A stretch of 64,000 bases of DNA from Alphaproteobacteria bacterium. GTDB taxonomy: Bacteria; Pseudomonadota; Alphaproteobacteria; SP197. The position numbers were made by a program, and so were the translations under genes. The first letter of the stretch is position 1. Every line of letters begins with the position of its first letter. Of this stretch, positions 9,349 through 48,289 are shown one piece after another. The stretch covers positions 2,112,001 to 2,176,000 of the forward strand of contig OZ219747.1 in NCBI GenBank assembly GCA_964291265.2, given 5' to 3'. The notes beneath the pieces were generated by a model. The model was not told where the DNA came from, did not search any database, and saw only the letters and a list, made by a program, of their open reading frames with translations.

Positions 9349-9353
9349 ACATC

Positions 9354-17099: not shown

Positions 17100-17349
17100 G
17101 TGTGCCAGGCGAACTGGCGGAAGGTAGGGGGGGAAAGTCCCCTGAAACGAAGGAGTAACCAAACCACGTTTCTCCGCGAGCCGTGCGTCGGTTCCCGCGA
17201 GGGGGCAGGCGAAGCGTCGGTAGCGGTACGGATGGGCAGGGCTAATGAGCACCGAAAAGTCCGTTGTTCGGGGTGCCGAGGCTTTCGCATCGGTCGAAGG
17301 CAACATCGCAGGCATCGATTTGGTGAGATGTCGGCGAGCCCCGCGGTGT
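17100..17349 (+). ncRNA. Group II intron, 5' part of domain I
   Basis: Starts GTGTG. EBS1 CGCATC (17286-17291) is complementary to exon GATGCG (17094-17099). Candidate EBS2 AGTCC (17258-17262) pairs with GGACT (17088-17092). GAAGGCAAC motif. Confidence 0.88.
17340..17349 (+). repeat. Left junction direct repeat CCCGCGGTGT
   Basis: Identical to 30627-30636; joining the two copies restores a continuous intron domain I. Confidence 0.85.
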
Positions 17350-17864
17350 GGCCCACAAGGTCACACCTGAGAGCGATGATCTGACTGACAGACGCCCCAC
17401 CTTCTCCCTCACGAATACCGCACGTTATCAGTGACATGGATGGTCTGTCAATGCCCTCGTGGCGTGGCGCCGCCAACCACATCCAGGCCCGTTTCCAGTG
17501 CATGAAAGTTGCATTTGCGGAAACGACGGCCGAGATACACACACCGTCCAGGCCCCTGCCTGATCGTCGGAACTGCGCGCTTCCAGGCACCACAAGAAAG
17601 CCACATGGAAGCAGCGCCAGACCGGACCTGCCACTTTACACAGGGTAGACCCGTGGTATTCTGGCATCGAAGTGAGCGAGATGACCACGAGAGACTATCC
17701 CATGTGGTGCAGGAGACACAGCCACATCAACGGTCAGTCACAGGCACCACAAGAGCGTCACATGGCATGCCTTGAACCGGGCGCTTCACAACACCATAAG
17801 AACGACATAGCAAGGGCCGCGCCGTGGACCACAGAGACACCATAGGGCCGCCACCGGTCGACAC

Positions 17865-18167: not shown

Positions 18168-18178
18168 AGGAGGTGTCC

Positions 18179-22100: not shown

Positions 22101-24982
22101 CGTTCCTCGAGACACCGGTCGAGGTGGGGTTCAAGGGCGCGAAGCTCCTCCAGTCCCTTGGTCCGTCCGCGGACATCCTGCAGAGCGTCGTCGGAGAGAA
22201 CGGGCTTGGGGAGAACGTCGACCCGTGTTTCCCCTTCTTCCCGGAATTGTCCGCCGATCGCCTCGAGAGCGGAGAGTTCATCTCCCGTCGCCGTCTCGAG
22301 AGCCTCCACCAGAGCATCCCGGTCGTCGGTCAGCAGCACCGCGTTGTCGCGGGCCCGCGTCAGTTCGACGTAGAACGCCGCCTGGCCCGTGATGGCGCCC
22401 TGGTTCGCATCGAGGACAGCGATCACCTGATCGCAGGTCATCCCCTGGGCCGCATGAACCGTCGAGGTCCATGCATGATCGATGAAGTGCAGATGGGGGT
22501 CATCATGAGCCAGGGTCAGTGTGCGGCCGTCGGCGGCCTGAAGCCACAGGCTGCTCTTGCCGATCGAGAGGACCCGCGCCTCCTCGCCGTTGAGAAGACC
22601 GCGTTCCTTGTCGTTGCGGGTCCAGCGGATCCTCTCCCCGGCCTGGAGTTCGATTGGTTCCGTCTCGAAGAGATCGACCCGGTAGCGCAGGTACTTCGAC
22701 GGATCGGCCCGGCGGGTCTTCCCGTCCGGATGCCTGAGCAGGACCTTCTCTCCTTGCGATCCGATGACGCCGAAGATGTCGCCCGACTTCGCCTGGACAC
22801 CGTAGACATCCGCATGGAAGACGGCGATGTCGCCCTCGCGCCAGTTGTCGAGATCCCCTTTCTGGGCCCGGGTGAGGTGGAGATTGACGTAGCGCTCGAT
22901 CTCGAGTGTGCGCCCGTGGAGGTTCCCCTCGGCCTTGAGGCCATCGCGGATGCCCTGCGTGATCTCCCGGCGCCGGGCATGGGTCGGGGCCAGGACCTTC
23001 GTGGCCTTACGCGATTCCCGGTCGAGATCAAGCCACAGGGCCGCGGCCCGTGGTCCGAGTTCGTCCGCGTCCATCTCCAGGACGCCGGGGCCGAGTTCCT
23101 CGATGGCGAGATCCGGCTTGCCCTCGATCATGTGGAGCACCGCGGCCTTCAGGCTCTCGTTGCGCTGCCGCAGGACCTCGTCCATCACCGCCGTCTCCAT
23201 GCCGGCCTTCTGCAGCACCCGGAACGGCTGACCGGCCTCGACCGAGCGCAGCTGCGCCCGATCGCCCACCAGGGCAACCCGGGCGATGCCCGTCGCCTCG
23301 GCGATGCGGCTGAGACCGTGCATCTGCGCCATGCTGATGAGCGACGCCTCGTCCACCACGAGAAGGGTTCCTTCCAGGGCCTCGCGAGCTCGTGCCAGGG
23401 ATTGGATGTCGGCGCAGCCGTCGCCGACATCCCGGTAGCGGGTGAGGAACCACTGCAGCGTCTTCGTGCCGATCCCGGTCTCCCGCTGCAGCGTGCGGGC
23501 CGCACTGCTCGAGGGCGCCAGGGCGACGATCCTGTCGGCCCCGGCCAGTTCGACGACCTGCTTCAACATGGTCGTTTTCCCGGTGCCCGCATGCCCCTGA
23601 ACACCGCAGACATGACGGGAGGACAGCAGCAGGGTGTTGACGGCGGCCTTCTGGCCGTCGTTGAGCGCACCGGCCGCAAGGTGGCGCTCGATGTGGTCGG
23701 CATCGATGGCGAACCGCTCGGGGGCATCACTCTCCTGCTTCATCCAGCGAAGCACCGCGCGTTCGGCCTTCACGGCCCGGTCCGTGACGAAGGCGCAGTC
23801 GGAACGTGCCGCCGTCGCCTCGATGAGGTGACCTTCCCGTCGCAGCCGGCCGATCGCCGCATCGACCTCCTTGAGGGTCCAACGGCCCGGCGCCAGGACG
23901 AGGGCCCGCAGCATGTCGGCCGTGAAGACCGTGCGCCGCTCCTCGATGTGCTCGACCGCCCGGCGGACGGCGTGGAGCGCCGAGGGAGACTGCCGGTTGG
24001 CAACTCCCCGGCGCGCAAGGTGCCAGCGCTCGCGGTCGAGGCGTGTGTGGGATGCCGGGCGGTTGCGGGAGATGTGGCGGTTGCGGGGAGCGCACTCCGC
24101 CATGCGGGCCTTCCAGATGTTGGCGAGTTCCTCGCGCGACGGCTCGTCCTTGCGCTTGCGGGTATAGAGAACCGCCTGTTGCATCACGGCGGCCGACTGC
24201 TCGTCCAGGTTACGCTCCCGGGCCCACGCCACGGCCTGCGCCCGGCGGGTCGAGAAGGCCTCCAGCGTCGCCTTGTCGTAGCCGGCAATCTCGAAACCGG
24301 GCACGCTACCCACCATGGTCTGTTCGGTGGCGTAGCCCAGGGCCTCGATGCGCCGCCTCAACTCCGCCCGGTAGTGAGCGCCGATCAGCAGCTTCGCGCG
24401 CTCGATCCTGATGAAGTCGGCGCTGCGCCACTCGCCATCCGGGTTCCGGGTCATGTTGGCGACAACGCTATGGGTATGAAGCTGCGGGTCGAGGTTGCGG
24501 CTGGCGTAATGGCGGAAGGTCGCCGCCACAAGGCCGTCGGCCTTGATGCGCGGGCGCTTGCGGGTGGCGGGGTCCCATCCCCGGGTCTCCAGCAGCTCCC
24601 TCTCGATGAAGTCAAGTGTCGCGGTCACTGCCTCGTCATGCGCTCGGATGATCCGGGCTGCCGCCTTCGGCGCCGCGTGCACCAGGGCCTCCAGAGAGAC
24701 CGACTTCGGAGCCGAGAAGGTGATGTCGAGGCCCGGACGGTGCTCGTGCCGACCCTTGCGCAGGCGGCCCAGCCGGGTCTTCGTGCCAGGAATGCGCCCG
24801 GAGAGGACTTCCTCGAAGCGCTTCGGCTTGACGGGACCGTGAAGGCCCAGGGCCTCCACGCCCCTGCCATGCCAACGGCTCGCCTTGCGGTGCTCGAGGT
24901 CGTTCTTCGCGTAATATCCATCCACCTCGAAGTAATGGACCGTCGAGGCAGCTTCAGTGAGGCGGGTAACCGTGGCAACCAT
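19184..24982 (-). CDS. MOBF (TrwC-like) relaxase-helicase, 1932 aa, long C-terminal extension
   Basis: YFEVDGYY, DITFSAPKSVS, DPQLHTH (HUH), GHAGTGKTT, VVDEAS, TVHAAQG, YVELTRAR; tail RSRSRGFSM. Confidence 0.9.
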   Translation of the reverse strand: MVATVTRLTEAASTVHYFEVDGYYAKNDLEHRKASRWHGRGVEALGLHGPVKPKRFEEVLSGRIPGTKTRLGRLRKGRHEHRPGLDITFSAPKSVSLEALVHAAPKAAARIIRAHDEAVTATLDFIERELLETRGWDPATRKRPRIKADGLVAATFRHYASRNLDPQLHTHSVVANMTRNPDGEWRSADFIRIERAKLLIGAHYRAELRRRIEALGYATEQTMVGSVPGFEIAGYDKATLEAFSTRRAQAVAWARERNLDEQSAAVMQQAVLYTRKRKDEPSREELANIWKARMAECAPRNRHISRNRPASHTRLDRERWHLARRGVANRQSPSALHAVRRAVEHIEERRTVFTADMLRALVLAPGRWTLKEVDAAIGRLRREGHLIEATAARSDCAFVTDRAVKAERAVLRWMKQESDAPERFAIDADHIERHLAAGALNDGQKAAVNTLLLSSRHVCGVQGHAGTGKTTMLKQVVELAGADRIVALAPSSSAARTLQRETGIGTKTLQWFLTRYRDVGDGCADIQSLARAREALEGTLLVVDEASLISMAQMHGLSRIAEATGIARVALVGDRAQLRSVEAGQPFRVLQKAGMETAVMDEVLRQRNESLKAAVLHMIEGKPDLAIEELGPGVLEMDADELGPRAAALWLDLDRESRKATKVLAPTHARRREITQGIRDGLKAEGNLHGRTLEIERYVNLHLTRAQKGDLDNWREGDIAVFHADVYGVQAKSGDIFGVIGSQGEKVLLRHPDGKTRRADPSKYLRYRVDLFETEPIELQAGERIRWTRNDKERGLLNGEEARVLSIGKSSLWLQAADGRTLTLAHDDPHLHFIDHAWTSTVHAAQGMTCDQVIAVLDANQGAITGQAAFYVELTRARDNAVLLTDDRDALVEALETATGDELSALEAIGGQFREEGETRVDVLPKPVLSDDALQDVRGRTKGLEELRALEPHLDRCLEERLRLEDAADGAPLSGMDGYAAWKERTTAALDIGGEVAGRIDWTETAETLQGLLAFDNDVLELVEKLRRHVAKEGEPDEDSLLSPDARELVQHVVLVGSEAPPYARLPWDLDDLVRRYETTTGTDALDLLFSEEELLAVAHAERPQSGEAPQMPATDHDAAEAPAETPAGDHISGDDVVEGLAAAIEERRALVAEAEGRLISSLAAYASWRKRAEAAVDAWQRRDGALSDVADRDAARLGRAFDLDDGAVDLVARLEAHEAEARAAARDPQAGLDVSLLAMDCINNMTLRILDGEPLPRVLADFMERRDAWRAERKKQEAQPGPVTGVKKAQPATTAPAPRPAPAASPPSARKSAPERAPTMTRGPAPAPGPSATPPTRQPTTPAPAPRPAPAASPPAARKPAPERAPKMTRGPAPAPAPPATPPTRKPATPAPAPRPAPAASPPPARKPAPERAPTMTRGPAPAPGPTVDPPTRQPATTAPAPRPAPAASPPSARKPAPERTPTMTREPAPAPGPPATPPTRQPATPAPRPVRPAPPPAEVSSPSIATPPPPAPDPVLAAQAIARALQERQRLQYASEGQALASLAAWKTWRRETRSAIADWKAGAAGATGATTWRDAERLEALVAFDTEANALVETWRHHADDAGRTGGDAFGHPDAGRILAAIRRLKDQAPQDAVLPQALARALKEADTHARERERVETLLASVSALDRDRRVLLEREGSRDRPLNRRWNRRWKRWRKEAETLAPVIGELKSPALAHHLDGTEGARALVSRVERMIAKRNKRDTLPGWLLLRLHDNAEEADRRGVHPTQTPAWKDIIPEMTALYRRLEADDPRCRMLWQETYDEDRRNEVKAEVRRLAGKIDHFHRRARSLATEAGKEGLALHQSAAYKYWHDATQSWTWNARRVLGREGAYGEVLADGSATARDMAEAMAAFEEIRKAYGPPDDSVRMERRREEQRQEQSRSRSRGFSM
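20516..21112 (-). repeat. In-frame tandem repeat, 4 x 144 bp (48 aa, Pro/Ala-rich) plus a partial unit
   Basis: Unit QPATTAPAPRPAPAASPPSARKPAPERAPTMTRGPAPAPGPPATPPTR; full units span 20537-21112. Confidence 0.9.
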
Positions 24983-25181
24983 GCAAGCTTATCCCCGAGC
25001 GATCGCAATAGAATTGCACAAGGCGTTCACCACACCGCTAGTTGCGACACTGACACCATATGAGTAGACTAATCTAACGAACTGAGCAAGTGGACTAAGC
25101 TTCCTGGCACTCCACGAAATGCAACGTTTTGCAACGCAGAAGTATAGACAAAGACACATTCCACAGTGGGGCGAGATCGCA

Positions 25182-26105
25182 ATGTCAGTGGAAATTCATT
25201 TTGGTGACTGTCTGGCTGTAACACCTGACTTCGAAACGGGATCGTTCAGCCTTGTATACATAGACCCTCCCTTCAACACGGGCCGAAAGCAAAAACGCAG
25301 ACAACTGAAGACGGTGCGAGACAACAACGGTGATAGAACGGGATTTCAAGGAAAGCGATACACAACACGCTGTCTTGGTGAATCATCATTTCACGACTCA
25401 TTCGATGACTACATGGGATTTCTGAAACCGCGCTTGATAGAGGCGAAACGCCTCTTGTCATCGACAGGCTCATTCTTCTTGCACATTGATTACCGGGAGT
25501 CTCATTATTGCAAGGTGTTCTTGGACACCGTTTTCGGACGCGAGTCGTTCATCAACGAGATCGTGTGGGCTTATGATTACGGTGCCAGATCGAAACGCCG
25601 ATGGTCTGCAAAACATGATACGATTTTGTGGTATGCTGTGAACCCGAAGGAGTACACCTATAGATATGAGGACATTGACCGCATCCCATATATGGCCCCA
25701 AATTTGGTAACGCCGGAGAAGGCCGCTCGCGGCAAGACGCCCACGGATGTTTGGTGGCAAACCATAGTCAGTCCAAATGGCAAAGAGAAAACGGGGTATT
25801 CAACACAAAAGCCCATTGCCATTCTGAATCGAATTATAAAGGTGCATAGTAACCCAGGAGACCGTGTTCTTGATTTCTTCGCGGGAAGTGGAACGACCGG
25901 TGAGGCGGCAGTTCGTAATGGTAGAAACGTGGTGTTGGTTGACAACAGTACAGAGGCGATTCGTGTTATGCGCCGGCGACTTGCGTTTGCAGAGCCGATC
26001 ATTCAGGGAGAAATGAAGGATGACGACAATTCAAGACCCGGAGGTCGGAATTCTAGCGACCTACTCGAAAGTACTGCAGTCGGACTACAAGGCCCCGGAC
26101 GATGA
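25182..26105 (+). CDS. Beta-class N6/N4 DNA methyltransferase
   Basis: YIDPPF precedes TQKP and LDFFAGSGTTG; lower GC. Confidence 0.88.
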   Translation: MSVEIHFGDCLAVTPDFETGSFSLVYIDPPFNTGRKQKRRQLKTVRDNNGDRTGFQGKRYTTRCLGESSFHDSFDDYMGFLKPRLIEAKRLLSSTGSFFLHIDYRESHYCKVFLDTVFGRESFINEIVWAYDYGARSKRRWSAKHDTILWYAVNPKEYTYRYEDIDRIPYMAPNLVTPEKAARGKTPTDVWWQTIVSPNGKEKTGYSTQKPIAILNRIIKVHSNPGDRVLDFFAGSGTTGEAAVRNGRNVVLVDNSTEAIRVMRRRLAFAEPIIQGEMKDDDNSRPGGRNSSDLLESTAVGLQGPGR

Positions 26106-26586
26106 CCTATGGAACGGAAGCCCCTTCAACTGGATTCGATCCAGACCATCGAGACAGAAAGGTGCAATTGGTGAGAAGTTGATTGCTGGCTATCTAGCTT
26201 GTAAGGGGCTCGATGTCACTCGTTCGCCTGATGCTGAGGCAGATCGAATCATTGGCGGGAAACGAGCTGAAATAAAGATGAGCACTCTTTGGAAAAACGG
26301 TTCATACAAGTTTCAACAACTGCGCGATCAGAATTATGAGTTCGCGATTTGCCTGGGTATCAGTCCTTATGACGCTCATTGTTGGGTCATACCAAAGACA
26401 GAAATTACTAGCAAGCGGCATTCTATGGCGATCCCGTCTCAGCACGGCGGAAGAGTGGGAAGCGATACGGCATGGCTAACTGTCGATCCCCACGCAGTGC
26501 CCGACTGGTTGACAAAATGGGGCGGACGACTGTCAGATGCCGTGAGATTGATTACCAAGATTACCGAGCAAGAGCCGCTGAAGTGA
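26020..26586 (+). CDS. Putative Type II restriction endonuclease (PD-(D/E)xK-like)
   Basis: KGAIGE...ADR...EIKMS...FQQLRDQ; overlaps the MTase 3' end; same low-GC block. Confidence 0.6.
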   Translation: MTTIQDPEVGILATYSKVLQSDYKAPDDDLWNGSPFNWIRSRPSRQKGAIGEKLIAGYLACKGLDVTRSPDAEADRIIGGKRAEIKMSTLWKNGSYKFQQLRDQNYEFAICLGISPYDAHCWVIPKTEITSKRHSMAIPSQHGGRVGSDTAWLTVDPHAVPDWLTKWGGRLSDAVRLITKITEQEPLK

Positions 26587-26605
26587 ACAAGCGGGTGCGC
26601 CAGGC

Positions 26606-27303
26606 TAAGGAGTCACGCCAAAATAGGTGATTTTTTTGTGTGGATCGGTTGTCCATGGTGTCATGGCAGCGACGGTTGATACGCTGCGATCCAGATTTGT
26701 GGTGTTGCGTCCGTTTCTGAACGAACGTGCGCGGCGCCTGTGGGCGGCGACGGAGGCCCGTGCCATCGGGCGCTCAAGGTATTGAGCGAGTGGCCGAGGC
26801 GACGGGGATGTCGCGTAGCACCGTTCGCGCCGGGCTGAAGGAGCTCGGATCGGACGCGGTCTCGGGGTCTTCGAGTGAGATTCCTTCAGGGCGTTTGCGT
26901 CGCCCCGGCGGCGGGCGCAAGCGGGTGACGGATGTGGATCCGGGTTTGGTGGCGGCGCTGGAGCGCGAGCTTGAACCGATGACGCGCGGCGATTCGGAGA
27001 GTCCGCTGCGCTGGACGTGTCACAGTGCCGCACGGCTGGCGGCCCGCCTTGCGGTCGAGGGTCACCGCGTCAGCGAGCGCACGGTGAACCGGCTACTCCA
27101 CGATCTGGGGTACAGCCTTCAGGCCAATCGCAAGACGCTGGAAGGCCGCCAGCATCCGGATCGGGATGCGCAGTTCCGACGCATTGACCGCCGGGTGCGC
27201 GCGTTCCAGAGGCTGGGCCAGCCTGTGGTGTCGGTCGACACCAAGAAGAAGGAAATCGTTGGCCAGTACCGCAATGGCGGCCGGGAATGGCGCCTCAAGG
27301 GCA
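26606..27303 (+). mobile_element. ISAzo13-family remnant (left end plus frameshifted, truncated transposase)
   Basis: End TAAGGAGTCACGCCAAAATA; LNERARRLWAA, RRPGGGRK, TRGDSESPLRWT, GYSLQANRKT, SVDTKKKE. Confidence 0.8.
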
Positions 27304-27611
27304 ACCCTGGTGTGGCATGGGCGGGCTGGAGCGGTAGGGAGGGTGTCATAACGAGCCAAAAATGGAACATGCGATATTAGATGCATTTATCGCCACATGT
27401 CAAGTGGAATCCGCGCTGAAACAGGCAGAAACACAGGAAAACCATGGATTTCCTGATCGGTGCGATATGCCCCTCAAAAGAGCAGGTCAGGATGTCTGAA
27501 GCTTGCTCCTCCGATGGCAGGTGGGATTACTCTACTTGGCCATGAGGCCTATTGTCTACATGTGGTGATTTCCCGGGGGTTTCCCAGGCAGATTCCAGGA
27601 AAATCGTGCCG

Positions 27612-27640
27612 TTGACACCGTTTCGTCAAGTCCTTACCAT
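27612..27640 (+). promoter_or_regulatory. Sigma70-like promoter with overlapping palindromic operator
   Basis: TTGACA-N17-TACCAT; TTGAC-N8-GTCAA inverted repeat over the -35. Confidence 0.5.
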
Positions 27641-27673
27641 ATTGGCCCGGAACGGAACATCAGAGGACGAGAG

Positions 27674-28165
27674 ATGAGATGTCTTGCACTCGCGGTCGTG
27701 GCGATGGTCGCGGCTCCGGCGGTTGCCGAAGAGGTGAGCGATCGAGCTCGTTTCAACCTATGGAACGATTGCGGAGTTGTAGATCTGGTAGTCGAGACAC
27801 CGTATGGTGACGCTGAAGCGATTGGTCTTCGCAAAGCGGACATTGAAACAACAGTGCGGAGCCGTCTGCGCGGCGCTCGCATTTATAATAGTGGAACCGA
27901 AGACACAGACATGTATCTTTATGTGCACATCAGCGTGGTCAGTTCCGCCTTTAGCCTCACTGTAGAACTTAAGAGGTTGGTTGCCCTGCCCCATTGGTCG
28001 ATCCCGGAAGGGGTGGCCCCGCTCATAGGTTACGCCTCAACGTGGATTGCAGGCAGCACCGGAATGCATGGCGGTGATCCGAATTTCCTCCTATCGGGTG
28101 CGGCTCAATACACAGACAAGTTCATCGATGAATATCTGCGCGTGAATGCCGCTGCGTGCCAGTAG
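27674..28165 (+). CDS. Hypothetical exported protein
   Basis: Signal peptide MRCLALAVVAMVAAPAVA; GAGGA upstream; promoter present. Confidence 0.7.
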   Translation: MRCLALAVVAMVAAPAVAEEVSDRARFNLWNDCGVVDLVVETPYGDAEAIGLRKADIETTVRSRLRGARIYNSGTEDTDMYLYVHISVVSSAFSLTVELKRLVALPHWSIPEGVAPLIGYASTWIAGSTGMHGGDPNFLLSGAAQYTDKFIDEYLRVNAAACQ

Positions 28166-28218
28166 TCATGTCGTTTTGCTCGAAAGTCGAAGTGGAACAC
28201 TATCCCCGGTCCATGTGT

Positions 28219-28247
28219 CTTGACGGGCCCGAAGTTATCCCGTCAAG
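28219..28247. terminator. Hairpin between convergent genes
   Basis: CTTGACGGG-N11-CCCGTCAAG, perfect 9-bp stem, no U tract. Confidence 0.35.
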
Positions 28248-29382
28248 CGGTGGATGACATCCCGAGCAACCCTGAAATCAGCCCGCCAACCCGCTCGGCG
28301 GCGGCTTCGGTTTCACGATCGCCCGTGTGGGCGTAGCGCAGGGTCATGGTCGTCTGCGCGTGACCGAGGAGCCTTGCGACGACGGGAAGCGGCGCTCCCT
28401 GCATGACGGCATGGCTGGCGAATGTATGGCGCAGATCATGGAGCCTGACATCCTCGATGCCGGCCTCCCTGCGGACGACGTACCACAGTGGGAGGTCGTC
28501 GTTGAGCGGCCGTCCGGGATCGCGGGGGGACGGGAAGACGAATGCGCTGTCGCTGGGAAGACGGCGCTCGATGATGGCCCGGGCCGGAGCATTCAGGACG
28601 ACCGTGCGCGGGCCGACCTTACTGTTCTGGAGTCGGAGATTGTTGCCGAGCACCTCCCGCTTCTGCAGGCGGACGATCTCGTTCTTGCGGCACCCGGTGA
28701 GCATGAGAAGCCGGATGATGTCGATCTGCATTCGCCGTGATCGACTGATCCCCTGGAGATTGTCGTGGCGGTCCAGCACGCCATGCAGCCGATGAAGTTC
28801 CTCGCGCGAGAGGAAGCGGGTGAGTTTCCTGCGCGGGTTGGGTTTCACCGACCTTGCCGGGTTCGCTGTGATGTGGCCGCAGGCCATGGCGTGATTGAGG
28901 ATGTGTCGAAGGACCTTCAGGCAGGAATTGGCGCCGCCGGGCGCCGTTCTGCTGTAGTCGTCGAACCAGCGGTGCACCATGGCGGGCGTGATCCGGTCCA
29001 GGCATCGGGAACCGAATGTCGGCAGCAGGCGGGCTTGAAGGCACCTGTCGCGCCACTGGATCGTCCCGGGCTTGCACCGATGGATCCAGGAGTCGCGCCA
29101 TGCGCCGACAGCAAAGTCCCTGAACAACGGGGCCGAAGCCCTGTCGTCGTGACCGGCTGCCAGTCTTTCGAGGCTCTCCTTGCGGGCCACTTTGACCGTC
29201 TTGAAGGCGACCGGACCAAGCGATGTCCTTCTTCCGCCGTCGATGTGAACGAAGCCGCGGCCTCCCGACGGGTGGACCCGAACCCCGAGAGAGGGAACGA
29301 AGGTATCGCGAAGCGTGTACTCCCGGGATCGCGGCTTGAGGTTGTGCACGAGGGTATCCGTCAGCTTCTTCCTGCGGTTCAT
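28243..29382 (-). CDS. Tyrosine recombinase/integrase 2
   Basis: Arm-binding-like N-term; TGCRKNE, RLHDLRHTFAS, LLGH, TLRY. Confidence 0.9.
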   Translation of the reverse strand: MNRRKKLTDTLVHNLKPRSREYTLRDTFVPSLGVRVHPSGGRGFVHIDGGRRTSLGPVAFKTVKVARKESLERLAAGHDDRASAPLFRDFAVGAWRDSWIHRCKPGTIQWRDRCLQARLLPTFGSRCLDRITPAMVHRWFDDYSRTAPGGANSCLKVLRHILNHAMACGHITANPARSVKPNPRRKLTRFLSREELHRLHGVLDRHDNLQGISRSRRMQIDIIRLLMLTGCRKNEIVRLQKREVLGNNLRLQNSKVGPRTVVLNAPARAIIERRLPSDSAFVFPSPRDPGRPLNDDLPLWYVVRREAGIEDVRLHDLRHTFASHAVMQGAPLPVVARLLGHAQTTMTLRYAHTGDRETEAAAERVGGLISGLLGMSSTA

Positions 29383-30506
29383 GCGTCAGTCCTTCCGAGA
29401 ACGGAGCCCACGGCCTCTGCCGCTTCAGCCATCATGCCGTCGGCGAGATGCGTGTACTTGAGAGTGGTCGCGGGATCGTTGTGACCGAGCAGTCGACCGA
29501 CGGTGAGAATGTTCTCTCCGTGCATGACGGCAAGGGAGGCGTAGGTGTGACGCAGGTCGTGAAGGCGCACATCCTCCAGGCGCGCTTCGGAGCGCACACG
29601 CATCCAGAAGTATCCGATGGCGCCTTGCGAGATGGACCTGGCGGTGGTCCTTGGCGATGGAAACATCCAAGGCGAACGACGAGGCAACGTCTTCAGGACC
29701 TTACGGGCGGGAGCCGACAGCCAGACCATGCGTGGCCCCGTCTTGGAATCTGCGAGATGGAGATGACCCTCGCGGTAATCCGCCCAGCGCAGCGACAGGA
29801 TCTCCTGGCTTCGGCACCCGGTGAGGAGCAGGAGGCGGATGATCGCCACCTGTGCCGGGAAGTGCGCTTCATGGTCCTGCAGCACGCGCCCGAGCCGGCG
29901 GACCTCCTCCACGCAGCAGAAGCGCTCCCGTCCCTGCCGTCGATAGCGCCTGATGCCCCGGCACGGATTGCTGCCTTCAGGCCGGTATCCGTAGTCCTCG
30001 GCACGGGCCATGATGACCGAGAGAACCGGAGCCGACCGGTCGGCTGCGACCGGCGTCGCGTGCAGGGAGGCGAACCACTCCTGAACATCGCCGCGCACGA
30101 TCTCCGCGATCTGGCGTCCACGGAACCACGGCAGGATATGGTTGCGGTAGTAGCCCCGGTTGACCGTGAGCGTACTGGGCTTCCATGTGCGCCCGTACCG
30201 GCGAAAGACCTCCTCGGCAACCGTCTCGAACAGGGTCTCGTGCGATGAAGCGGGAGCGCCGCTTCTGATGGCGGCGAGCATGGCCTGTGCGCGTTGTCTG
30301 GCCTCGGCGAGACCGATCCCGGCAGCGTCACCGACGATCTTCCAGATCCTCTGCCCATCATGCTGGGTATGGATGAAGTAGCGCTTGCGCCCCGATGGGT
30401 AGACACGGATGCCGAATCCCCTGAGATGGGCGTCACGGATGTCCCGGGCAGTTCTGCGAGGACGCAGGGCCTTGATGCGGCTCTCGGTGAGATGTGTTGC
30501 GGCCAT
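29379..30506 (-). CDS. Tyrosine recombinase/integrase 1
   Basis: Arm-binding-like N-term; TGCRSQE, RLHDLRHTYAS, LLGH, TLKY; stop overlaps the start of integrase 2. Confidence 0.9.
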   Translation of the reverse strand: MAATHLTESRIKALRPRRTARDIRDAHLRGFGIRVYPSGRKRYFIHTQHDGQRIWKIVGDAAGIGLAEARQRAQAMLAAIRSGAPASSHETLFETVAEEVFRRYGRTWKPSTLTVNRGYYRNHILPWFRGRQIAEIVRGDVQEWFASLHATPVAADRSAPVLSVIMARAEDYGYRPEGSNPCRGIRRYRRQGRERFCCVEEVRRLGRVLQDHEAHFPAQVAIIRLLLLTGCRSQEILSLRWADYREGHLHLADSKTGPRMVWLSAPARKVLKTLPRRSPWMFPSPRTTARSISQGAIGYFWMRVRSEARLEDVRLHDLRHTYASLAVMHGENILTVGRLLGHNDPATTLKYTHLADGMMAEAAEAVGSVLGRTDA

Positions 30507-30611
30507 GGAGTCTCCCTCGAATGCGAGTTGCAGGAGCGGGAGATTCCGCTCGCGAAATCGCCTGCAGTTGCAGAAACGAGAGAGAAAATACGGCGTTAGT
30601 TCAGTTGTTTA

Positions 30612-30636
30612 GCACCACAGGTGCGTCCCGCGGTGT
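30612..30636 (+). other. Right junction: oriT-like hairpin plus direct repeat CCCGCGGTGT (30627-30636)
   Basis: GCACC-ACA-GGTGC-GT-CCCGCGGTGT; hairpin arms match the R388 oriT hairpin as recalled. Confidence 0.5.
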
Positions 30637-32305
30637 CGGAGAACCCATGCACGTCCGCACGCCTTCTGTTGGGACCCTGGGAGGTCTTCGAACTATCCCG
30701 CCTGTCGTGGCGGGACCGTGTAGGGAAAGGAGAAAGCCGAAGCCTATGAGGAACGGTTTGAAGAAGTCGGATGGGGCCGTAAGACCGGTGAAGGCGGCGA
30801 ACAAGGGAGCGTCAGCTTCTGCGGAGTCGCTGGAGGAAAGGGCCTCAACCAAGGGGAATCCGGGACGCCAAAGCACGCACCGAACGCAGTGTCGGGCAAG
30901 TGTGCCACAGGCGGCGGACCGGATACGGGAAGCTGCAGAGAGGAACCCGAAGGAGCGTCTCACTGCACTCTTCCATCACATTACGCCGGACGCGCTCCGG
31001 GCGGCCTACTTCGGTTTGAAGAAGGAAGCCTCGGCAGGTGTCGACGGCGTGACGTGGGCGGCGTATGGCGAGGGTCTGGACGAGCGCTTGCTTGATCTGC
31101 ACTCGCGCCTGCATCGTGGGGGAGCGTACCGGGCGCCGCCGGTTCGGCGGGTTGAGATACCCAAGCCGGACGGCGGGACACGACCGCTCGGGATTGCCGC
31201 ACTGGAGGACAAGATCGTCCAGAAGGCGGTTGTGGATGTGATCCTGACACCGATTTATGAGGTGGAGTTCCTTGGCTTCAGCTACGGGTTCCGACCGGGC
31301 CGAGGGGCGCATGACGCTCTCGACGCCCTGGCGTTCGGGATCGAGCGGCGCAAGGTCAACTGGATAGTCGACGCGGACATTCAGGGGTACTTCGACACAA
31401 TCCCGAGGGATTGGTTGATCAAGTTCCTGGAGCATCGCATTGGCGACAGGCGGGTGATCCGTCTGATCCGCAAGTGGCTGAACGCTGGCGTCATGACCGA
31501 CGGATCATGGAGCGACACCGGTGCGGGCACGCCTCAGGGCGCCATTGTCAGCCCCTGCCTGGCGAACGTGTTTCTGCACTACGTGCTCGATCTGTGGTTT
31601 CACAAGGCATGGCGTCCGAAGGTTCCGAACGGTAAAGCGATCATTGTCCGCTACGCGGACGATATTGTGGTCGGGTTCCAGCATAAGCGGGATGCGGAGA
31701 CATACCTTCGCGACGTTCGGGAGAGGCTGGACCGCTTTGGTCTCACCCTTCACCCGGACAAGACCCGTCTCGTTGAGTTTGGACGGTTTGCCAAGGCGAA
31801 CCGGCGATCTCGCGGGGCGGGCAGGCCGGAGACGTTCGACTTCCTGGGCTTCACGCACTTCTGCACGGAGACCCGGAGAGGACGCTTCAGGCTTGGTCGC
31901 AAGCCGGTCGCAAAACGGGTCGCAAGGACCCTGGCGCGCATCGAGGAGGTGCTTCGCAATCGACGGCATCACGACATATGGGAGGTCGGCATGTGGCTTG
32001 GGCGAGTTGTCAATGGCTGGTCCAACTACTTCGCCGTTCCGGGGTCGACCCGATGGCTGCGCACGTTCCGCCAAAGGCTGCAACGCCTATGGCTGCGAGC
32101 GATCCGCCGCCGCTCCCAGCGCCACTGCTTTGACTGGAAGCGATTGGAGCGCATGACCGAGCTTCTTTGGCCGCGCGTCTCCATCCGCCACCCATGGCCG
32201 GACCAGCGGTTTACCGTCAAGCACCCGAGGTAGGAGCCGGATGGATTAACGTCCATGTCCGGATCTGTGCGGGGGGTGCGCAGCAATGCGCATCCCTACC
32301 GCGAC
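30637..32305 (+). ncRNA. Group II intron, 3' part (rest of DI to DVI; class E-like)
   Basis: DV GAGCCGGATG...TCCGGATCTGTGCGGGGGG; DVI ends CCCTACCGCGAC at 32305; flanking exons rejoin in frame. Confidence 0.9.
30746..32233 (+). CDS. ltrA: Group II intron reverse transcriptase/maturase, no endonuclease domain
   Basis: IPKPDGGTRPLGI, SYGFRPGRGAHDAL, GTPQG, RYADD, FDFLGF; ends HPWP..RF. Start uncertain (alternative GTG 30902). Confidence 0.92.
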   Translation: MRNGLKKSDGAVRPVKAANKGASASAESLEERASTKGNPGRQSTHRTQCRASVPQAADRIREAAERNPKERLTALFHHITPDALRAAYFGLKKEASAGVDGVTWAAYGEGLDERLLDLHSRLHRGGAYRAPPVRRVEIPKPDGGTRPLGIAALEDKIVQKAVVDVILTPIYEVEFLGFSYGFRPGRGAHDALDALAFGIERRKVNWIVDADIQGYFDTIPRDWLIKFLEHRIGDRRVIRLIRKWLNAGVMTDGSWSDTGAGTPQGAIVSPCLANVFLHYVLDLWFHKAWRPKVPNGKAIIVRYADDIVVGFQHKRDAETYLRDVRERLDRFGLTLHPDKTRLVEFGRFAKANRRSRGAGRPETFDFLGFTHFCTETRRGRFRLGRKPVAKRVARTLARIEEVLRNRRHHDIWEVGMWLGRVVNGWSNYFAVPGSTRWLRTFRQRLQRLWLRAIRRRSQRHCFDWKRLERMTELLWPRVSIRHPWPDQRFTVKHPR

Positions 32306-32390
32306 CCAGCTGGTCTCGTCGCCGTGGCGCACCGTCATCTGGTTCTGATGATCGAGGATGGCCTGAGCGAGAAGCGCGAACATCGGTTTC
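32306..32390 (-). pseudogene. tnpC: IS66 TnpC, upstream piece
   Basis: Reads LKPMFALLAQAILDHQNQMTVRHGDETSW and continues in frame at 17099 as RIQSLKASGRSQKAWLW. Confidence 0.85.
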
Positions 32391-33511: not shown

Positions 33512-34120
33512 ATGGTGGCGACGGTTCACGAGCTTGCGTCCTCGGCGACCGCGGTTTCGTACTACGAGCAGGACGGGTACTACGCCCGCAACGATCCCGA
33601 GCACCGCAAGGCGAGCTTCTGGCATGGCCGTGCGGCGGGCGACCTTGGGTTGAGGGGCCACGTTGTGCCGTCGCGCTTCGAGTCGGTGCTGCAGGGCAAG
33701 GTGCCGAAGACGGACATCCGTCTGGGGAGGATCGTCGAGGGAGAGCGCCAGCACCGTCCGGGCTGGGACATCACGTTCTCGGCGCCGAAGTCGGTGTCTC
33801 TGGAAGCGCTGGTGATGGGGGACGTGCGTGTCATCCGGGCGCACGACGAGGCGGTTCGGGCGACCCTGGACTGGATCGAGCGGGACCTCTTGCAGACCCG
33901 GGGCTGGGATCCGGCGACGAAGCGCCGGCCGCGGGTGAAGGCGGACGGCATGGTGGTGGCGGGCTTTCGCCATCTCACAAGCCGTGATCTCGATCCCCAG
34001 CTTCACACGCACTGCGTTCTGGCGAACATGACGCGCTCGTCCGACGGCGCCTGGAAGAGCATCGAGCCGACATCCTTGCGGCGCAGCGAGAAGCTGATCG
34101 GAGCGCACTACCGCAACGAA
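33512..34120 (+). pseudogene. MOBF relaxase 2, N-terminal 203 codons (interrupted by IS21)
   Basis: YYEQDGYY, DITFSAPKSVS, DPQLHTH; HYRNE continues as LASRL at 39447. Confidence 0.9.
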
Positions 34121-34598
34121 TGTTGATGGCTGCATAGAACGGCGGGATTTCGGCGATTTGCCGCGCTTTGTCAGGGTCGTGTTTCTTCCCTGTTGTTAGG
34201 TCCTATTGTCACGTCCTGTTGTCGTGGTTTGAGTGTTCGGCTGGTTGTCTCCCCGAGCGCCGCCGTCTTTTCCTATTGTCGTTTTGGTCCGGTTCGGGTT
34301 CCGTCGACCTCTGCTTCGGTCTTGGTGACGGTTGCCGGGAGGGTTCCGGTTCCGAGGCACTCGCGGGATCGTCTGTCTTCCCTGTGGGCGGGTCGCGTTG
34401 TCCGGTCCCGGGGCGGCGTTTTTGCCGCCGCCCCGGGTGGATGCTAGATCGGCATCAAGAGAAAGAGCGATGCGATGCCGGGCGGAGTTGTGACGCCCCC
34501 CGGCGCAGCACCCGGACGAGCCGGTCACGGGGGACCGAACTCCCGTGTATTGTCGAGCCATTTTGCGTCCGGGTCCACCCCCGCTCTCGAGACGGACG

Positions 34599-35075
34599 GT
34601 GTGCACGACAGGACGACTGTTCAACTGCAGGCGGTGTCAGCGGCAGGTTGTTCTCTGCCGGTCGTGTGACCGGGGGCATGTGTATTGCTCCAAGGAGTGC
34701 AGGGAGCGGTCCCGGATCGAGCGGCGCCGCGCGTCGCGTCGTCGCTACCAGAGCACGCTGAAGGGCCGTGAGACGGGCCGTCACCGCCAGCGGCGTTACC
34801 GGCTCCGCAAGGCGGAGGAGGCGCGTGCGTTGAAGGCCAGGGCGGCGATGGTTGCCGAGATCATGGACACGCAGACGTCTGCTGTGGTGCTGCTTGGCGA
34901 CGTTCCGGCGGTGTCTGGAGACGCCGGTTCTGAAGAAATCGTTACGGACCACCCTTCCCGACTGCTGCCGACCTCCCTACCTGCGGTTGTGAAGGCGCAA
35001 GAGCGACGCGAATCGCCGCTTCGGTGCGCCCGGTGCGGACGGGTCGTGACGCATGTGGTGCTGAGGGACCTGTGA
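34599..35075 (+). CDS. Cys-rich, basic putative zinc-binding passenger protein
   Basis: FNCRRC..VLCRSCDRGHVYCSKEC, Arg-rich helix, C-term CARCG. Confidence 0.6.
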   Translation: MCTTGRLFNCRRCQRQVVLCRSCDRGHVYCSKECRERSRIERRRASRRRYQSTLKGRETGRHRQRRYRLRKAEEARALKARAAMVAEIMDTQTSAVVLLGDVPAVSGDAGSEEIVTDHPSRLLPTSLPAVVKAQERRESPLRCARCGRVVTHVVLRDL

Positions 35076-35107
35076 TGCGGCGTTGAGGAACCAAAGGGAG
35101 GGAGTTC

Positions 35108-36601
35108 ATGGCGATCGACGAGGACACGCGGGCGACGATCGTGCGGCTGTCGCGGGCCGAGGGCTGGGCTGTGGGGACGATTGCCCGGCATCTCGGCGTG
35201 CACCACGGCACGGTGACGCGGGCGCTCAAGGCGTCGGGGCAGGAGCGGCGGCCGCGGGCCAAGCTCATCGACCCCTTCGTTGCCTTCCTCGGGGAGCGTC
35301 TTGAGGCGTCGCCGGACCTTCCGGCCAGCACGCTCTGGCGACAGGTCGTGGCCCTGGGCTACCGCGGCGGCGAGGATCACTTCCGTCACGACCTGCGCCG
35401 CCTCGGGCTGAGGCCGGTGAAGAGGCCCGAGCCGTCACTGCGGCTGAGCTTCCTTCCGGGCGAGCAGGCGCAGGTTGACTGGGCCGAGTTCGGGAAGGTC
35501 CGCATCGGCCGGGCGGAGCGCAGGCTCATGGGGCTTCTCGTCACCCTCAGCTACTCGCGCCAGACTGTCCTGAGCCTGTTCCACGACGCGCGGATGGCCA
35601 GCTTCCTGCAAGGCCATGTCGAGGCTTTCGCGGCATTCGGGGGTGTGCCGCGGAGGCTTCTGTACGACAACCTGAAGAGTGCCGTGGTGACGCGCCGCGG
35701 CAAGGCGGTCACCTATCATCCGATGCTGCTCGGCCTCGCGGCCCACTATGCCTTCGAACCGAGCGCCGCCTGGCCCAGGAGCCCGCAGGAGAAGGGCCGC
35801 GTGGAACGCCGTGTGCGCTTCGCGCGCACCGGGTTCTTCGCCGGGCGCGACATCACGGTCCCGCTCGGCGAGCTCAACGCCGCAGTTCGGGAGTGGTGCT
35901 TCGGCGCCGCCGCGGAGCGGCCCTGGCCGGACGACGACAGTCTCCTGGTGCGGGACGCCTTCGCCCGGGAGAGGGAGCACCTGATCGTCCTTCCCGCCGA
36001 TCCCTTCCCGCATCACGAGGTCCGCCCGGTGCGCATCGACAAGACCTGCCACGCCCGCTTCGACACCAACGACTACAGCGTTCCGGGTAGCTTCTCCAAG
36101 GCCCTGCTGACGCTGGTCGCCGACCGCGACGAGGTTCGCATCCTCGACGGCGCCGACGAGGTCGCGCGCCACCGACGCTCCTACGACAGGAAGCAGGCCG
36201 TCACCGATCCGGAGCATGCCAGGGCGATCGCCGCGGGCAAGCGGCGGGCCCGCTCCATGAGCGTCCGCGACCGGGTCCTGCGCACCGTGCCGCGGGCCGA
36301 GGAGATGCTGGCGCGCGCCGGGACCAACGGGCGCAACGTGGCCTCCTGCGCCCGGATGCTGGAGACGCTTCTCAACGCGCACGGCGCCGACGCTCTCGAC
36401 CGGGCTGTCGCCACGGCGCTGGAGCGCGGCTCGTGCCACCCCGAAACCGTGCGCGTCATCATCGAGGAGCGCCGCCGGGAGCAGGGCCTGCCGCCCCTCA
36501 GCATCGCCGACGACGGCCGCGGCGGCCGTGGCACGACGCCGCGGGGGACCGCTCTCGACGCCTACGACAGGCCCGAAGCCAGCGCCAGGAACAAGACATG
36601 A
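35108..36601 (+). CDS. istA: IS21 transposase IstA
   Basis: PGEQAQVDW, LSYSR, FGGVPRRLLYDNLKS, PQEKGRVE, DTNDYSVP. Confidence 0.92.
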   Translation: MAIDEDTRATIVRLSRAEGWAVGTIARHLGVHHGTVTRALKASGQERRPRAKLIDPFVAFLGERLEASPDLPASTLWRQVVALGYRGGEDHFRHDLRRLGLRPVKRPEPSLRLSFLPGEQAQVDWAEFGKVRIGRAERRLMGLLVTLSYSRQTVLSLFHDARMASFLQGHVEAFAAFGGVPRRLLYDNLKSAVVTRRGKAVTYHPMLLGLAAHYAFEPSAAWPRSPQEKGRVERRVRFARTGFFAGRDITVPLGELNAAVREWCFGAAAERPWPDDDSLLVRDAFAREREHLIVLPADPFPHHEVRPVRIDKTCHARFDTNDYSVPGSFSKALLTLVADRDEVRILDGADEVARHRRSYDRKQAVTDPEHARAIAAGKRRARSMSVRDRVLRTVPRAEEMLARAGTNGRNVASCARMLETLLNAHGADALDRAVATALERGSCHPETVRVIIEERRREQGLPPLSIADDGRGGRGTTPRGTALDAYDRPEASARNKT

Positions 36602-37299
36602 GCGAGCTCAGGGAGCGTGCCCGGGCGCTCGGCCTCCACGGGCTCGTCGAACGCTGGGACGAGGTCGCCGGGACCGCATGGATCGAGGAGGTGGTCAGCG
36701 GCGAGGAACAGGCCCGCAGGGCCCGCAGCCACGAGCGCCGCCGCGCCGCGGCGCGGCTGCCCGCCTTCAAGCCCCTGGCGGACTTCGACTGGACATGGCC
36801 GCGCGACATCAGCCGGGCCCATGTCGAAGCGCTCCTCGGCCTCGGCTTCGTCGACCGTGCGGACAACGCCGTGCTCGTCGGCGGGCAGGGCACCGGAAAG
36901 ACCATGATCGCTGCCAACGTGGCTCACCAGGCCCTGCTGCACGGCCACACCGTCCGCTTCGAGAAGGCGCCGGAACTGCTCGAGGCACTCGCCGAGACCG
37001 TCTCGCGCAGCGAGCTGCGCCGCCGCCTCGCGATCCTCGCCAGGCCCCGCCTGCTCGTCCTCGACGAAATCGGCTACGTGACCCTCGAAAGCCACCATGC
37101 CGACATCCTCTACGCCATCGTCTCGCGGCGCTATCAGCGCCGCTCGACCATGGTCACGACAAGCCTCGCCTTCGCCCAGTGGGACCGCGTCTTCCCCAGC
37201 GCCTCCGGCATCGCCGGCACCGTCGACCGGCTCATGCACGACGCAACCCTCATCTCCATCGACAGCGACTCCTGGCGGCTCAGGCGTGAAACCCGATAA
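36598..37299 (+). CDS. istB: IS21 AAA+ helper IstB
   Basis: GGQGTGKT, LLVLDEIGY, VDRLMH, SWR; ATGA overlap with istA. Confidence 0.92.
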   Translation: MSELRERARALGLHGLVERWDEVAGTAWIEEVVSGEEQARRARSHERRRAAARLPAFKPLADFDWTWPRDISRAHVEALLGLGFVDRADNAVLVGGQGTGKTMIAANVAHQALLHGHTVRFEKAPELLEALAETVSRSELRRRLAILARPRLLVLDEIGYVTLESHHADILYAIVSRRYQRRSTMVTTSLAFAQWDRVFPSASGIAGTVDRLMHDATLISIDSDSWRLRRETR

Positions 37300-38179
37300 A
37301 CCCCGCCGCGTCGACTTCGACGCCGTCAAGCGCATGCCGTTCGAACGCATCGCCGCCGACTGGGGATACGTCCGCGACGAACAGGCCTCGACACGCGCCA
37401 ACCCCGTCCTGTGCGCACCCGGCCTGCCGAAGCTCGTCACGAAGTGCCTCAACAACGGACACTGGGTCTACTTCAACACCCAGAACGATGAAGACAACGG
37501 AACCGTCATCGACTTCATGCTCAACCGCGGACTGGCCTTCGCCGACATCTGCACCCGCTTCACAGCACCCGACGCCGCGCCACGCGACTTCCGCAGCCTC
37601 TGGGCCGCGGCAACGCCCGATGCGGCCCCGGACTGGCTCACCGGGCGCGGCATCCTCCCGGAGACCCTCGACACCTGCCGCCCCCTGGTCCGCCGCGACC
37701 ACAACGGACGCGTCCTCTTCGCCCATCGCAACAGGAAGCGAAAGCTCACCGGCTTCGAGATCGGTCCCCCCGACGGACCGAAACGCTTCGCCACCGGTGG
37801 AACCCGAAGCCTGTTCGCCGTCCGCGCCGGAACCGCCGCGGACCTCGAGGCCCTCGTCATCACCGAAAGCGCCGTCGACGCCCTCAGCCTGGCCCAGATC
37901 GACCAATGTCCCCCCAGCCACGCCTTCCTCTCCACCGCCGGGGCACCCTCGCGAAGACAGCACGAACAGATCAGCCTCGCCGCAAGCAGCCTGCCCAACG
38001 TCAGGACCATCGTCCTCGCCCAGGACCACGACGAGGCCGGAGAGCGACAGGCCGAAACCCTGCGCAAAAAGATGAAGCTCCCCTCCCACGTCTCGTTCCA
38101 CAGACGCAGACCGCCGGAAAACGCCGACTGGAACGACGTCGTCAACGCCAGGACCAAAGAACCACAAGCGAGATCATGA
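37286..38179 (+). CDS. Toprim-domain (DUF3991/primase-like) passenger protein
   Basis: DNGTVIDFM, WLTGRGI, TGFE, VITESAVDALS, STAG, LAQDHDEAGE, DWND. Confidence 0.75.
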   Translation: MKPDKPRRVDFDAVKRMPFERIAADWGYVRDEQASTRANPVLCAPGLPKLVTKCLNNGHWVYFNTQNDEDNGTVIDFMLNRGLAFADICTRFTAPDAAPRDFRSLWAAATPDAAPDWLTGRGILPETLDTCRPLVRRDHNGRVLFAHRNRKRKLTGFEIGPPDGPKRFATGGTRSLFAVRAGTAADLEALVITESAVDALSLAQIDQCPPSHAFLSTAGAPSRRQHEQISLAASSLPNVRTIVLAQDHDEAGERQAETLRKKMKLPSHVSFHRRRPPENADWNDVVNARTKEPQARS

Positions 38180-38496
38180 CCACGTCCGTCACAAGGAGAC
38201 CACTCATGCCCCTCACGCCCGCCGAAAAGCAGCGGCGATACCGGGAACGGCGCAAGGCCGGCATCCCTCCCGTCCACACCCCAAAGCACCGTGACCGGCG
38301 CTCGCGACCGCAACGCTGGAACGACGCCGTGGCCGAACTGCGCGCCCTGCAGGACGAATGGCGTGACCACCTCGACAGCATCCCCGAAAGCCTCCGTGAC
38401 ACGCCTTACGGAGAACGCCTGCAGATCGTCGCCGATGCCGACATCGAGGCCCTCGAGGACATCGAACCGCCACGCGGCTACGGAAGGGATACGTGA
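38176..38496 (+). CDS. Small hypothetical passenger protein (106 aa)
   Basis: ATGA overlap; LTPAEKQRRYRER..RSRPQRWNDAV..PPRGYGRD. Confidence 0.6.
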   Translation: MTTSVTRRPLMPLTPAEKQRRYRERRKAGIPPVHTPKHRDRRSRPQRWNDAVAELRALQDEWRDHLDSIPESLRDTPYGERLQIVADADIEALEDIEPPRGYGRDT

Positions 38497-47860: not shown

Positions 47861-48289
47861 GGCGCCGTGACCAGCGTTGACTGGGGAAACACATGCGCCG
47901 GATGAGGGCCGATCAGAGATGTCATTGTCCTGTGCTCATCCTGCATGGCGATATCGAAGCCCCTTCTTGTGTTGTTCTTGTGGCGCGCTGATATGTTTCT
48001 GTTGCGTCATCCTGGACGGCCGTGAGGGATCTGGCAAGCGGACAGTCGTGGCCGTTCTACTTCCCTGGGTGCAACAATTTAACGACATCGGAACGACACC
48101 GCGTTGTTCCGGCGCGATCGAAAATTCCCTTGCACTGTCCCGTAACCTGTTGTAGAAGGGCCGGGAAGTGAGAGATGACGTTTGGTTGCCGTTGGCCGGT
48201 TGGTGTCGTTACCGACGGTTCTTGTGCTTACACCATAGCCGTGGGGTGATCCAATATGACATGATGCCTATATTGGAGCAGTCCAGGCC

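Follow-up and report, generated by a model that had tools for sequence, protein, structure and literature searches.

The sequence at 30612-30636 of the window (the whole stretch of 64,000 nucleotides analysed here) raises two questions: which enzyme placed a mobile element inside a group II intron at this point, and whether the junction formed there also carries a transfer origin. This sequence forms the right-hand end of an integrative element of 13.3 kb with tandem tyrosine integrases and a MOBF relaxase (Table 1). It begins with the hairpin GCACC-ACA-GGTGC (30612-30624), followed by G, by T, by the five bases CCCGC (30627-30631), referred to below as N5, and by GGTGT (30632-30636). The last ten bases are duplicated at 17340-17349, where the left copy is followed by GGCCCAC. 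These letters, read from the sequence, agree with the hairpin, core and GGCCCAC that an earlier note on this DNA had reported for the predicted circle junction. The ends of the element and its 10-bp duplication are exact, because the intact intron site is found in 27 copies and because public contigs carry the empty-site joint 17339-to-30627. The hairpin and the G and T behind it are counted as property of the element, since this T mismatches the target, while N5 appears, from the comparison of sequences presented below, to be the overlap region where strands are exchanged. The circle joint 30636-to-17350 was not seen in the contigs of two runs from one study, and contigs drop rare forms.

Table 1. 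Features of the element, its two ends and the surrounding sequence, in window coordinates.
Feature	Position	Strand	Basis or remark
Group II intron, 5' part (domain I)	17100..17349	+	Rfam RF02005 at 17134-17355; starts GTGTG
attL, left 10-bp core copy (N5 = CCCGC, then GGTGT)	17340..17349	+	27 intact site copies in genome
Element left arm, first base a purine	17350..17560	+	Purine first in 27/27 left arms
Predicted outward promoter	17424..17451	-	TTGACA 17451-17446, GATAAC 17429-17424
Three small ORFs	17865-18167, 18179-18496, 18493-18894	+	Last two NikA-like ribbon-helix-helix
MOBF relaxase-helicase, 1932 aa	19184..24982	-	PF08751, E 9e-78; NF041492 above cut-off
Cargo: DNA methyltransferase, ORF, ISAzo13-type transposase fragment, ORF	25119..28165	+	
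intB, tyrosine recombinase, full R-K-H-R-H-Y set	28243..29382	-	PF00589
intA, tyrosine recombinase, Arm-DNA-bind_3 (DUF4102), full catalytic set	29379..30506	-	Overlaps intB start
Right arm, two GTTGCA..G(G/A)GAG motifs	30507..30611	+	
Conserved hairpin GCACC-ACA-GGTGC, then G and T	30612..30626	+	Element-owned
attR, right 10-bp core copy	30627..30636	+	Junction matches profiled in 27 elements
Group II intron, 3' part, reverse transcriptase/maturase ORF and domains V-VI	30637..32305	+	TIGR04416 above cut-off
Left junction of second, 52-kb family element	48230..48241	-	12-bp duplication, exact empty copies

The gene content is that of a mobilisable element. When aligned with TrwC of R388, the relaxase shows the equivalents of Tyr18 and Tyr26 and three histidines, that is, the catalytic tyrosines and the histidine triad expected of a MOBF relaxase. 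Tandem repeats of about 141 bp lie within its C-terminal region (20498-21118). The first small ORF (17865-18167) gave no family match. Motif enrichment brought out TTGCA..GGAA in the left arm and twice more in the right arm, and these motifs are predicted integrase arm sites. Of 28 left arms, 22 have an outward TTGACA located 99-107 bp from the end; the promoter scan did not call the left-arm promoter of the window, which in the circle would read across the junction into intA. Tyrosine integrases, direct repeats within the range of 8-60 bp, an empty site, a relaxase of its own and no secretion system together point to an integrative and mobilisable element (IME). With the queries used, no match to TrwB, VirB11 or PF03135 (VirB4-family) was obtained in the genome; with no such coupling protein, VirB11 or VirB4-family match, transfer would therefore need a helper from elsewhere.

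The insertion splits domain I of the intron (17100-32305), which itself lies antisense inside an IS66 transposase gene; the intron-less joint, 17099 to 32306, is present in contigs. RF00029 matched at 32232-32305 (E 1e-4), below its gathering score. The ten-base core has 43 copies in the genome, of which 27 are intact intron sites and 4 are junctions, leaving 12 others, and a different member of the family occupies the same intron position elsewhere. Landing in an intron was indeed to be expected, because 27 of the 39 unoccupied perfect CCCGC-GGTGT sites are intron copies. The intron occurs at about 30 places besides the window (G000:C2); about 14 of the copies are full-length and near-identical, and about 14 are short and devoid of the ORF (about 660 nt, 92-96% identity), many of them in IS66 in either orientation. 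An ORF resembling Druantia DruA (15405-16325) adjoins the IS66 transposase and has many genome copies; it apparently belongs to the insertion sequence.

IS66, the intron and the 13.3-kb element are all enclosed in the second family element, of 52 kb, the right end of which lies beyond the window at G000:C2:2108139. Its cargo at 18-11953 consists of helicase, methyltransferase, helicase, MrfA Zn-binding and phospholipase D genes, in an order which we take to be that of a class I DISARM system. This larger element has its own MOBF relaxase (33512-46721), split by inserted sequences into an N-terminal part of 204 aa at 33512 and a remainder within a 2459-aa ORF at 39342.

The two elements belong to a larger family, the source genome alone holding at least seven members with both ends. 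Relatives of IntA at E < 1e-60 were found in 21 of the 151 genomes searched, and in 14 of the 22 others in the genus. Judged on the window alone, the hairpin is at chance level, since its pattern occurred in 19 of 100 shuffles of the window and its fold had a z-score of 0.03, and its significance was not accepted on that basis. It is real because it is conserved family-wide. The end pattern was matched 68 times in 13 of the 23 genomes of the genus, versus once for the reversed control, and a perfect stem was present in 53 of the 58 ends with TGCG-N5/6-xGTGT, which read GCACC-N3-GGTGC, then G(T/G)-N5-(G/C)GTGT. Two of the remaining ends have the compensatory pair GCACT/AGTGC, two a broken pair and one a four-base loop. 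Loops are variable, GAA being the commonest (27 of 58). The caution expressed earlier, that a 5-bp stem can arise by chance, is thus justified for the window by itself and does not extend to the family, in which the conservation at homologous ends that the earlier note proposed as a check is found. The other suggestion made there, that CCACA-N14-TGTGG across the same junction may be an ordinary integrase core site, was rejected as this repeat is not conserved: its five pairs were all present in only 1 of 27 junctions, with a mode of two out of five.

Other features vary within the family. The relaxase gene is convergent with the small ORFs in the window element; related relaxases are co-directional with them in L130-L145, L167 and L168. 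Relaxase-free members of 10 kb (L048, 9400-19550; L191, 1900-12400) carry a Calx-beta protein of about 1980 aa behind the small ORFs. Three elements (G005:C11:74657, G013:C1:1574658 and G011:C1:1556774) interrupt genes at a DTN codon run containing ACACC, presumably the run typical of PIN-domain proteins. In G038, no N5/N6 end was seen at seven integrase loci, three of which lie at tRNA-like ends.

The two ends of each element were then compared. Among 31 elements, 24 had a perfect duplication of N5 and core, 4 had one mismatch, 2 had discordant ends and 1 had a left end that was not found; in other words, at most one mismatch was seen in 28 of the 30 elements with both ends found. Over the five N5 positions, the junctions of 27, 27, 27, 26 and 24 of the 27 paired elements agreed, versus 12 and 9 at the flanks, an agreement that is partly built in inside the N5 block, because the left end of each element was selected as the best match to its right end (by hand in four cases). 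The distance from left end to first small ORF is about 390-590 bp in every case, the arms behind the left ends are homologous, and the ends of four elements in the source genome, as well as the porin site described below, are confirmed by exact empty sites. The two discordant cases, L120 (N5 ATTAC at one end and AATCA at the other) and G013h (where the left end matches the right end of another element), are assumed to result from rearrangement. For the element at G000:C2:917824, the left end was found neither within 80 kb nor by motif.

N5 itself was variable. It took 25 distinct forms among the 27 paired elements, which are not all independent, as three pairs of elements share a target, and all four N5 mismatches were at the last or second-last N. 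In pairs of ends with at least 95% identity, 4-5 of the five N5 bases are the same (4 pairs, not independent), versus 0-2 in pairs with 90-93% identity (6 pairs). Two ends identical at 49 of the 50 bases leading up to the hairpin carry GCTAT in one case and GAAGA in the other. The lineage of the window element displays CCCGC, CCCGT and CCCGG at different sites, and it is essentially in this one lineage that inheritance of N5 is seen.

The origin of such an end may be sought in conjugative transfer. The oriT of R388 consists of a hairpin, GGTGCG, eight bases and the nick (PMC4814116, Table 1), and the R388 sequence quoted in the earlier note agrees with that table and with record L174. An inverted repeat ending in TGCG, placed 5' of a putative nick, is likewise present at 30612-30625. 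The window end does not conform to an R388-type nic, because the stretch from the arm to the last base of GTGT measures 11 bases, five of which are free. The distance from arm to nick is thus 11 nt here and 10 nt in the sister clade, instead of eight, and only (G/C)GTGT and one purine are fixed, instead of the 6+2 core around the nick which TrwC is described as needing (PMC3264647). As to the resemblance to a MOBF oriT put forward earlier, it is borne out by distant relatives which end in nic-like sites, and not by the spacing and core of the window's own clade, which are noncanonical.

These distant relatives were found both in the same genus and on plasmids. Within the genus, hairpin-CG-N3-GGTGT is found about 190 bp upstream of an integrase pair 42-44% identical to that of the window, one copy of which is accompanied by a 15-bp repeat at a distance of 29 kb. 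A 29-kb element of the distant pair (G000:C2:3749397-3778764; L225, L226) bears canonically spaced nic-like sites at both ends; no TrwC match was obtained inside it. Similar motifs, found with a hairpin filter, occur near related relaxases with no integrase pair, and hairpin-nic motifs with canonical spacing were located in these bacteria at 1.5-9 kb from related MOBF relaxases. The plasmid survey covered 8 loci taken from the 25 matches listed, with pairs 38-42% identical. A C(G/A)-N3-GGTGT end lies just upstream of the first integrase in 7 of these 8 loci, with the 8-nt spacing of R388, and in four of the loci a stem 4 bp or longer, of differing sequence, keeps the same register. The pair of a Vibrio plasmid (L273) had no GGTGT end.

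In each of four Shewanella plasmids, the element lies at the predicted oriT, flanked by a 13-bp repeat; its cargo differs between the plasmids, and its annotation contains no relaxase. In the empty site, present in two related plasmids, GCGTGGGGTGT comes after an inverted repeat, at about 0.7 kb from a MOBF traI, and this position and motif make it a predicted oriT. The Shewanella loci L272, L279 and L282-L287 are relaxase-free twin-integrase cassettes of 7-11 kb at a predicted MOBF oriT, with a restriction-modification system, a retron Ec67 gene or a bacteriocin cluster as cargo. Their integrases are sister to the window pair (SH-aLRT 97, quick tree with midpoint root). The attachment core and hairpin are likely to descend from a MOBF nick site, the direction, nic-targeting first, being a tentative one under a quick, midpoint-rooted tree of kin that are not independent.

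A third context is a porin gene, in which an integrase pair 63-67% identical to that of the window lies between inverted CCACT-GGTGT cores, with neither relaxase nor hairpin. Relative to the flanking sulfotransferase types, this cassette has opposite orientations in G000/G004 and in G011/G012, and this comparison between genomes suggests that it inverts. The porin cassettes form one clade and therefore count as one event. Such shufflon loci (G000:C2:4025184-4036819, L179; L180-L183; G013:C1:2893543-2898170) combine a Porin_4 porin and a sulfotransferase, with one promoter and signal-peptide exon borne by the integrase cassette. At least six silent porin halves were counted in G009, and the G000 cassette is interrupted by two insertion sequences. 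Mobile members of the family also insert into the porin CCACT-GGTGT core (G013, G005, G019).

Taken as a whole, it is probable that the integrases exchange strands across N5 under a homology requirement that admits rare single mismatches, using a core derived from nic-targeting ancestors. Identity of the overlap is described as the usual rule in tyrosine recombination (PMC2817482), and the turnover of N5 beside 50 near-identical bases places the crossover 5' of N5, as in tyrosine recombination. Spacer length and class follow the IntA tree in 27 of 27 elements and one relaxase clade has both spacings, in trees that are otherwise largely congruent and with one mosaic carrying much of the spacer-class evidence. 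Relaxase domains 98-100% identical are moreover paired with unrelated N5. Two complete elements from different genomes, in which the Calx-beta protein replaces the relaxase, have perfect duplications and hairpins, and a relaxase may be supplied to them in trans. The earlier note had envisaged, as one of two options, that the relaxase inserted the element at a nic-like sequence of the intron. In a TrwC-like form of this proposal, the relaxase would bring in a single strand and join it to the nic-like GGTGT, with no need of integrases. The junction does come right after GTGT with a purine on the element side, the relaxase carries both catalytic tyrosines, which TrwC integration needs, and TrwC is reported to tolerate target changes at the termination step (PMC3264647). 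However, in the model described for TrwC, strands are joined at the nick and the donor bases preceding it stay at the downstream junction (PMC3264647). Such retention is not what is observed, since N5 differs between ends 90-93% identical, and a TrwC-like process cannot replace N5 at the right end. Nor does it fit elements devoid of relaxase with the same ends, an integrase pair which, at the ends examined, stands 105-135 bp away from the hairpin, or targets lacking hairpin and arm. We consider it very improbable, and the proposal is not supported, in view of N5 turnover, of a spacer that follows the integrase in 27 of 27 elements and of the similarity of relaxase-free elements. A true target-site duplication would be another way to obtain 25 distinct N5 in 27 elements, most with perfect duplications: staggered cuts with fill-in, or biased heteroduplex repair, would allow any GGTGT to be a target, with N5 copied anew each time and possibly altered by point mutation afterwards. 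This is unlikely, in view of the two different elements at the same intron position despite 10,319 GGTGT sites in the genome, of the CCCGN series within one lineage and of four mismatches all located on the last two N.

From a mechanistic point of view, recombination by the integrases through N5 may have arisen as follows. An ancestor would have targeted MOBF nic sites, and its attP would thereby have copied hairpin-CG-N3-GGTGT. One clade may then have gained two to three bases after the hairpin, which would have moved the overlap off the hairpin arm and left it free to vary. Each element could from then on enter any N5-GGTGT matching its own, with an occasional mismatch at the last or second-last N, and N5 would drift over many moves through the single mismatches tolerated. 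Here, N5 being CCCGC, the free sites are mostly intron copies, and landing in an intron is expected. IntA and IntB would each read one of two unlike half-sites, formation of the circle would put the left-arm promoter ahead of intA, and the relaxase would serve transfer via a helper system, and not integration.

As regards the persistence of the hairpin, we give an even chance to its being a vestige of a nic-like attP, now used as an integrase site or single-strand fold, the oriT lying elsewhere or being that of the helper. The hairpin is indeed found where a core half-site is expected, adjoining the overlap, and it accompanies the integrase module in four relaxase clades as well as in relaxase-free elements. 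However, neither the porin cassette nor targets show constraint at that position, and compensatory stems in the wider family (GCATC/GATGC, GCAGC/GCTGC and GCCGC/GCGGC) point to a fold rather than a fixed sequence. A somewhat less probable addition, compatible with insertion by the integrases, is that the joined ends are also a working oriT, with the relaxase binding the hairpin and nicking after GTGT; it would then loop out the variable bases, and transfer would start only after excision. This possibility is in line with the hairpin in 53 of 58 ends, its two compensatory changes and its frequent GAA loop (27 of 58), with its loss in the porin cassette, where recombination evidently went on, and with the purine that comes first in 27 of 27 left arms, unlike targets. 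It is also in line with the canonically spaced hairpin-nic motifs 1.5-9 kb from related MOBF relaxases, and with the absence of a conserved canonical nic from 45 left-arm or pre-ORF regions, which gave 8 scattered exact or one-mismatch matches, and from the sequences upstream of 8 relaxases. TrwC, moreover, is reported to cleave rearranged hairpin/nick oligonucleotides in vitro, but rearranged R388 oriTs transferred poorly in vivo (PMC4814116). Against a working oriT, the putative nick lies 10-11 nt from the arm, versus 8 nt in R388 and R388-like plasmid sites, and five bases vary in a region where TrwC is described as needing a fixed 6+2 core (PMC3264647). The spacing follows the integrase, and relaxase domains share no insertion that could absorb the extra bases (3 of 13 rows, out of frame, being ignored). 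The hairpin loss in the porin cassette is one event, and the hairpin persists in relaxase-free elements. A literature search on the DNA-contact residues of TrwC found nothing relevant. A nic-like stretch upstream of the relaxase (25030-25039, minus strand) was discarded as a candidate, being absent from the seven other aligned upstream regions.

Combining these elements, we tentatively propose, as a reading that we hold to be possible and somewhat short of an even chance, that the circle junction is attP and oriT at once, in a module of oriT-parasitic origin which escaped through an insertion of two to three bases and was domesticated once, as the porin shufflon. Excision would in that case assemble a MOBF nick site in which the variable overlap of the integrases separates hairpin from nick. 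The relaxase would read across five arbitrary bases, and transfer would be hard-wired to excision.

The module thus ties a two-integrase family to MOBF transfer origins, and presents one recombination site in three states: cassettes inserting in oriT, a mobilisable element in many copies, with targets chosen through a 10-bp match that drifts, and an inversion switch that is fixed. The contribution of the window is the clade with relaxed targets, the N5 rule and a path between these three states. Should the junction also be an oriT, it would link excision to transfer in a simple physical way and would offer the relaxase a substrate whose core is free. A pair of integrases that takes its target from five bases of the donor would moreover be of interest as a tool. 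In the full-text literature open to the search, we found no description of this two-integrase family; the module is widespread and apparently undescribed. In a 2017 review (PMC5704250), no MOBF relaxase is listed for the canonical IMEs then known, nor is any member of this category in Proteobacteria. PMC4853378, PMC5714925 and bioRxiv 2024.01.30.577996 were used as background only.

Known systems share one or another of these properties. With R388 oriT and TrwC, the likeness lies in the GCACC/GGTGC stem, the GGTGCG proximal arm and a relaxase about 41% identical (PMC4814116, PMC3264647), as well as in a relaxase gene placed opposite the nic-like strand; the difference lies in 8 nt and a fixed core in the R388 system as described, versus 10-11 nt, five free bases and no coupling protein in the window clade. 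Like the SE, GInt and Tn554 elements, the window element has two RHRY tyrosine recombinases and a short spacer adjoining its ends. As presented in PMC10214605, however, these have a core of four genes, inverted terminal motifs and a 6-bp footprint that does not match the target, and they have no mobilisation genes, whereas intA and intB overlap directly here and the spacer is identical at both ends in 24 of 31 elements. Arm-binding tyrosine recombinases are shared with the CTnDOT/Tn916 type, in which IntDOT is described as needing no full overlap identity (PMC2817482). The window family, by contrast, limits mismatches to one base, and 28 of 30 elements, with one mismatch or none, do not show the heterologous coupling sequences of Tn916 and CTnDOT. 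IntA carries DUF4102, a marker of the IntSXT group; members of that group are described as targeting conserved genes, and the account given in PMC8138268 mentions no tandem pair. Mobilisable elements with a tyrosine integrase duo, low target specificity and several copies per genome are described in Prevotella intermedia (MTnPi1-3; PMC5704250). Compared by that description only, they differ by an AT-rich preference, with no nic-like core mentioned.

A further parallel is that of the IME_oriT of streptococci, in which elements with a tyrosine integrase reside in the nic stem-loop of a conjugative oriT (PMC7563843, PMC7563491, PMC5704250), some copies being reported at secondary chromosomal sites (PMC7563843, Libante et al. 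2020; PMC5704250). Insertion of this kind is shared by the Shewanella relatives, which occupy a predicted oriT. By contrast, IME_oriT are described with one integrase gene, a Rep_trans relaxase, MOBT targets and Firmicutes hosts, whereas the window element has two integrases, a MOBF relaxase and a MOBF-type core; it sits in domain I of an intron, and its clade, whose targets lack a hairpin, has ceased to target oriTs. The window element is IME-like but outside the IME_oriT family, and its relatives work like IME_oriT.
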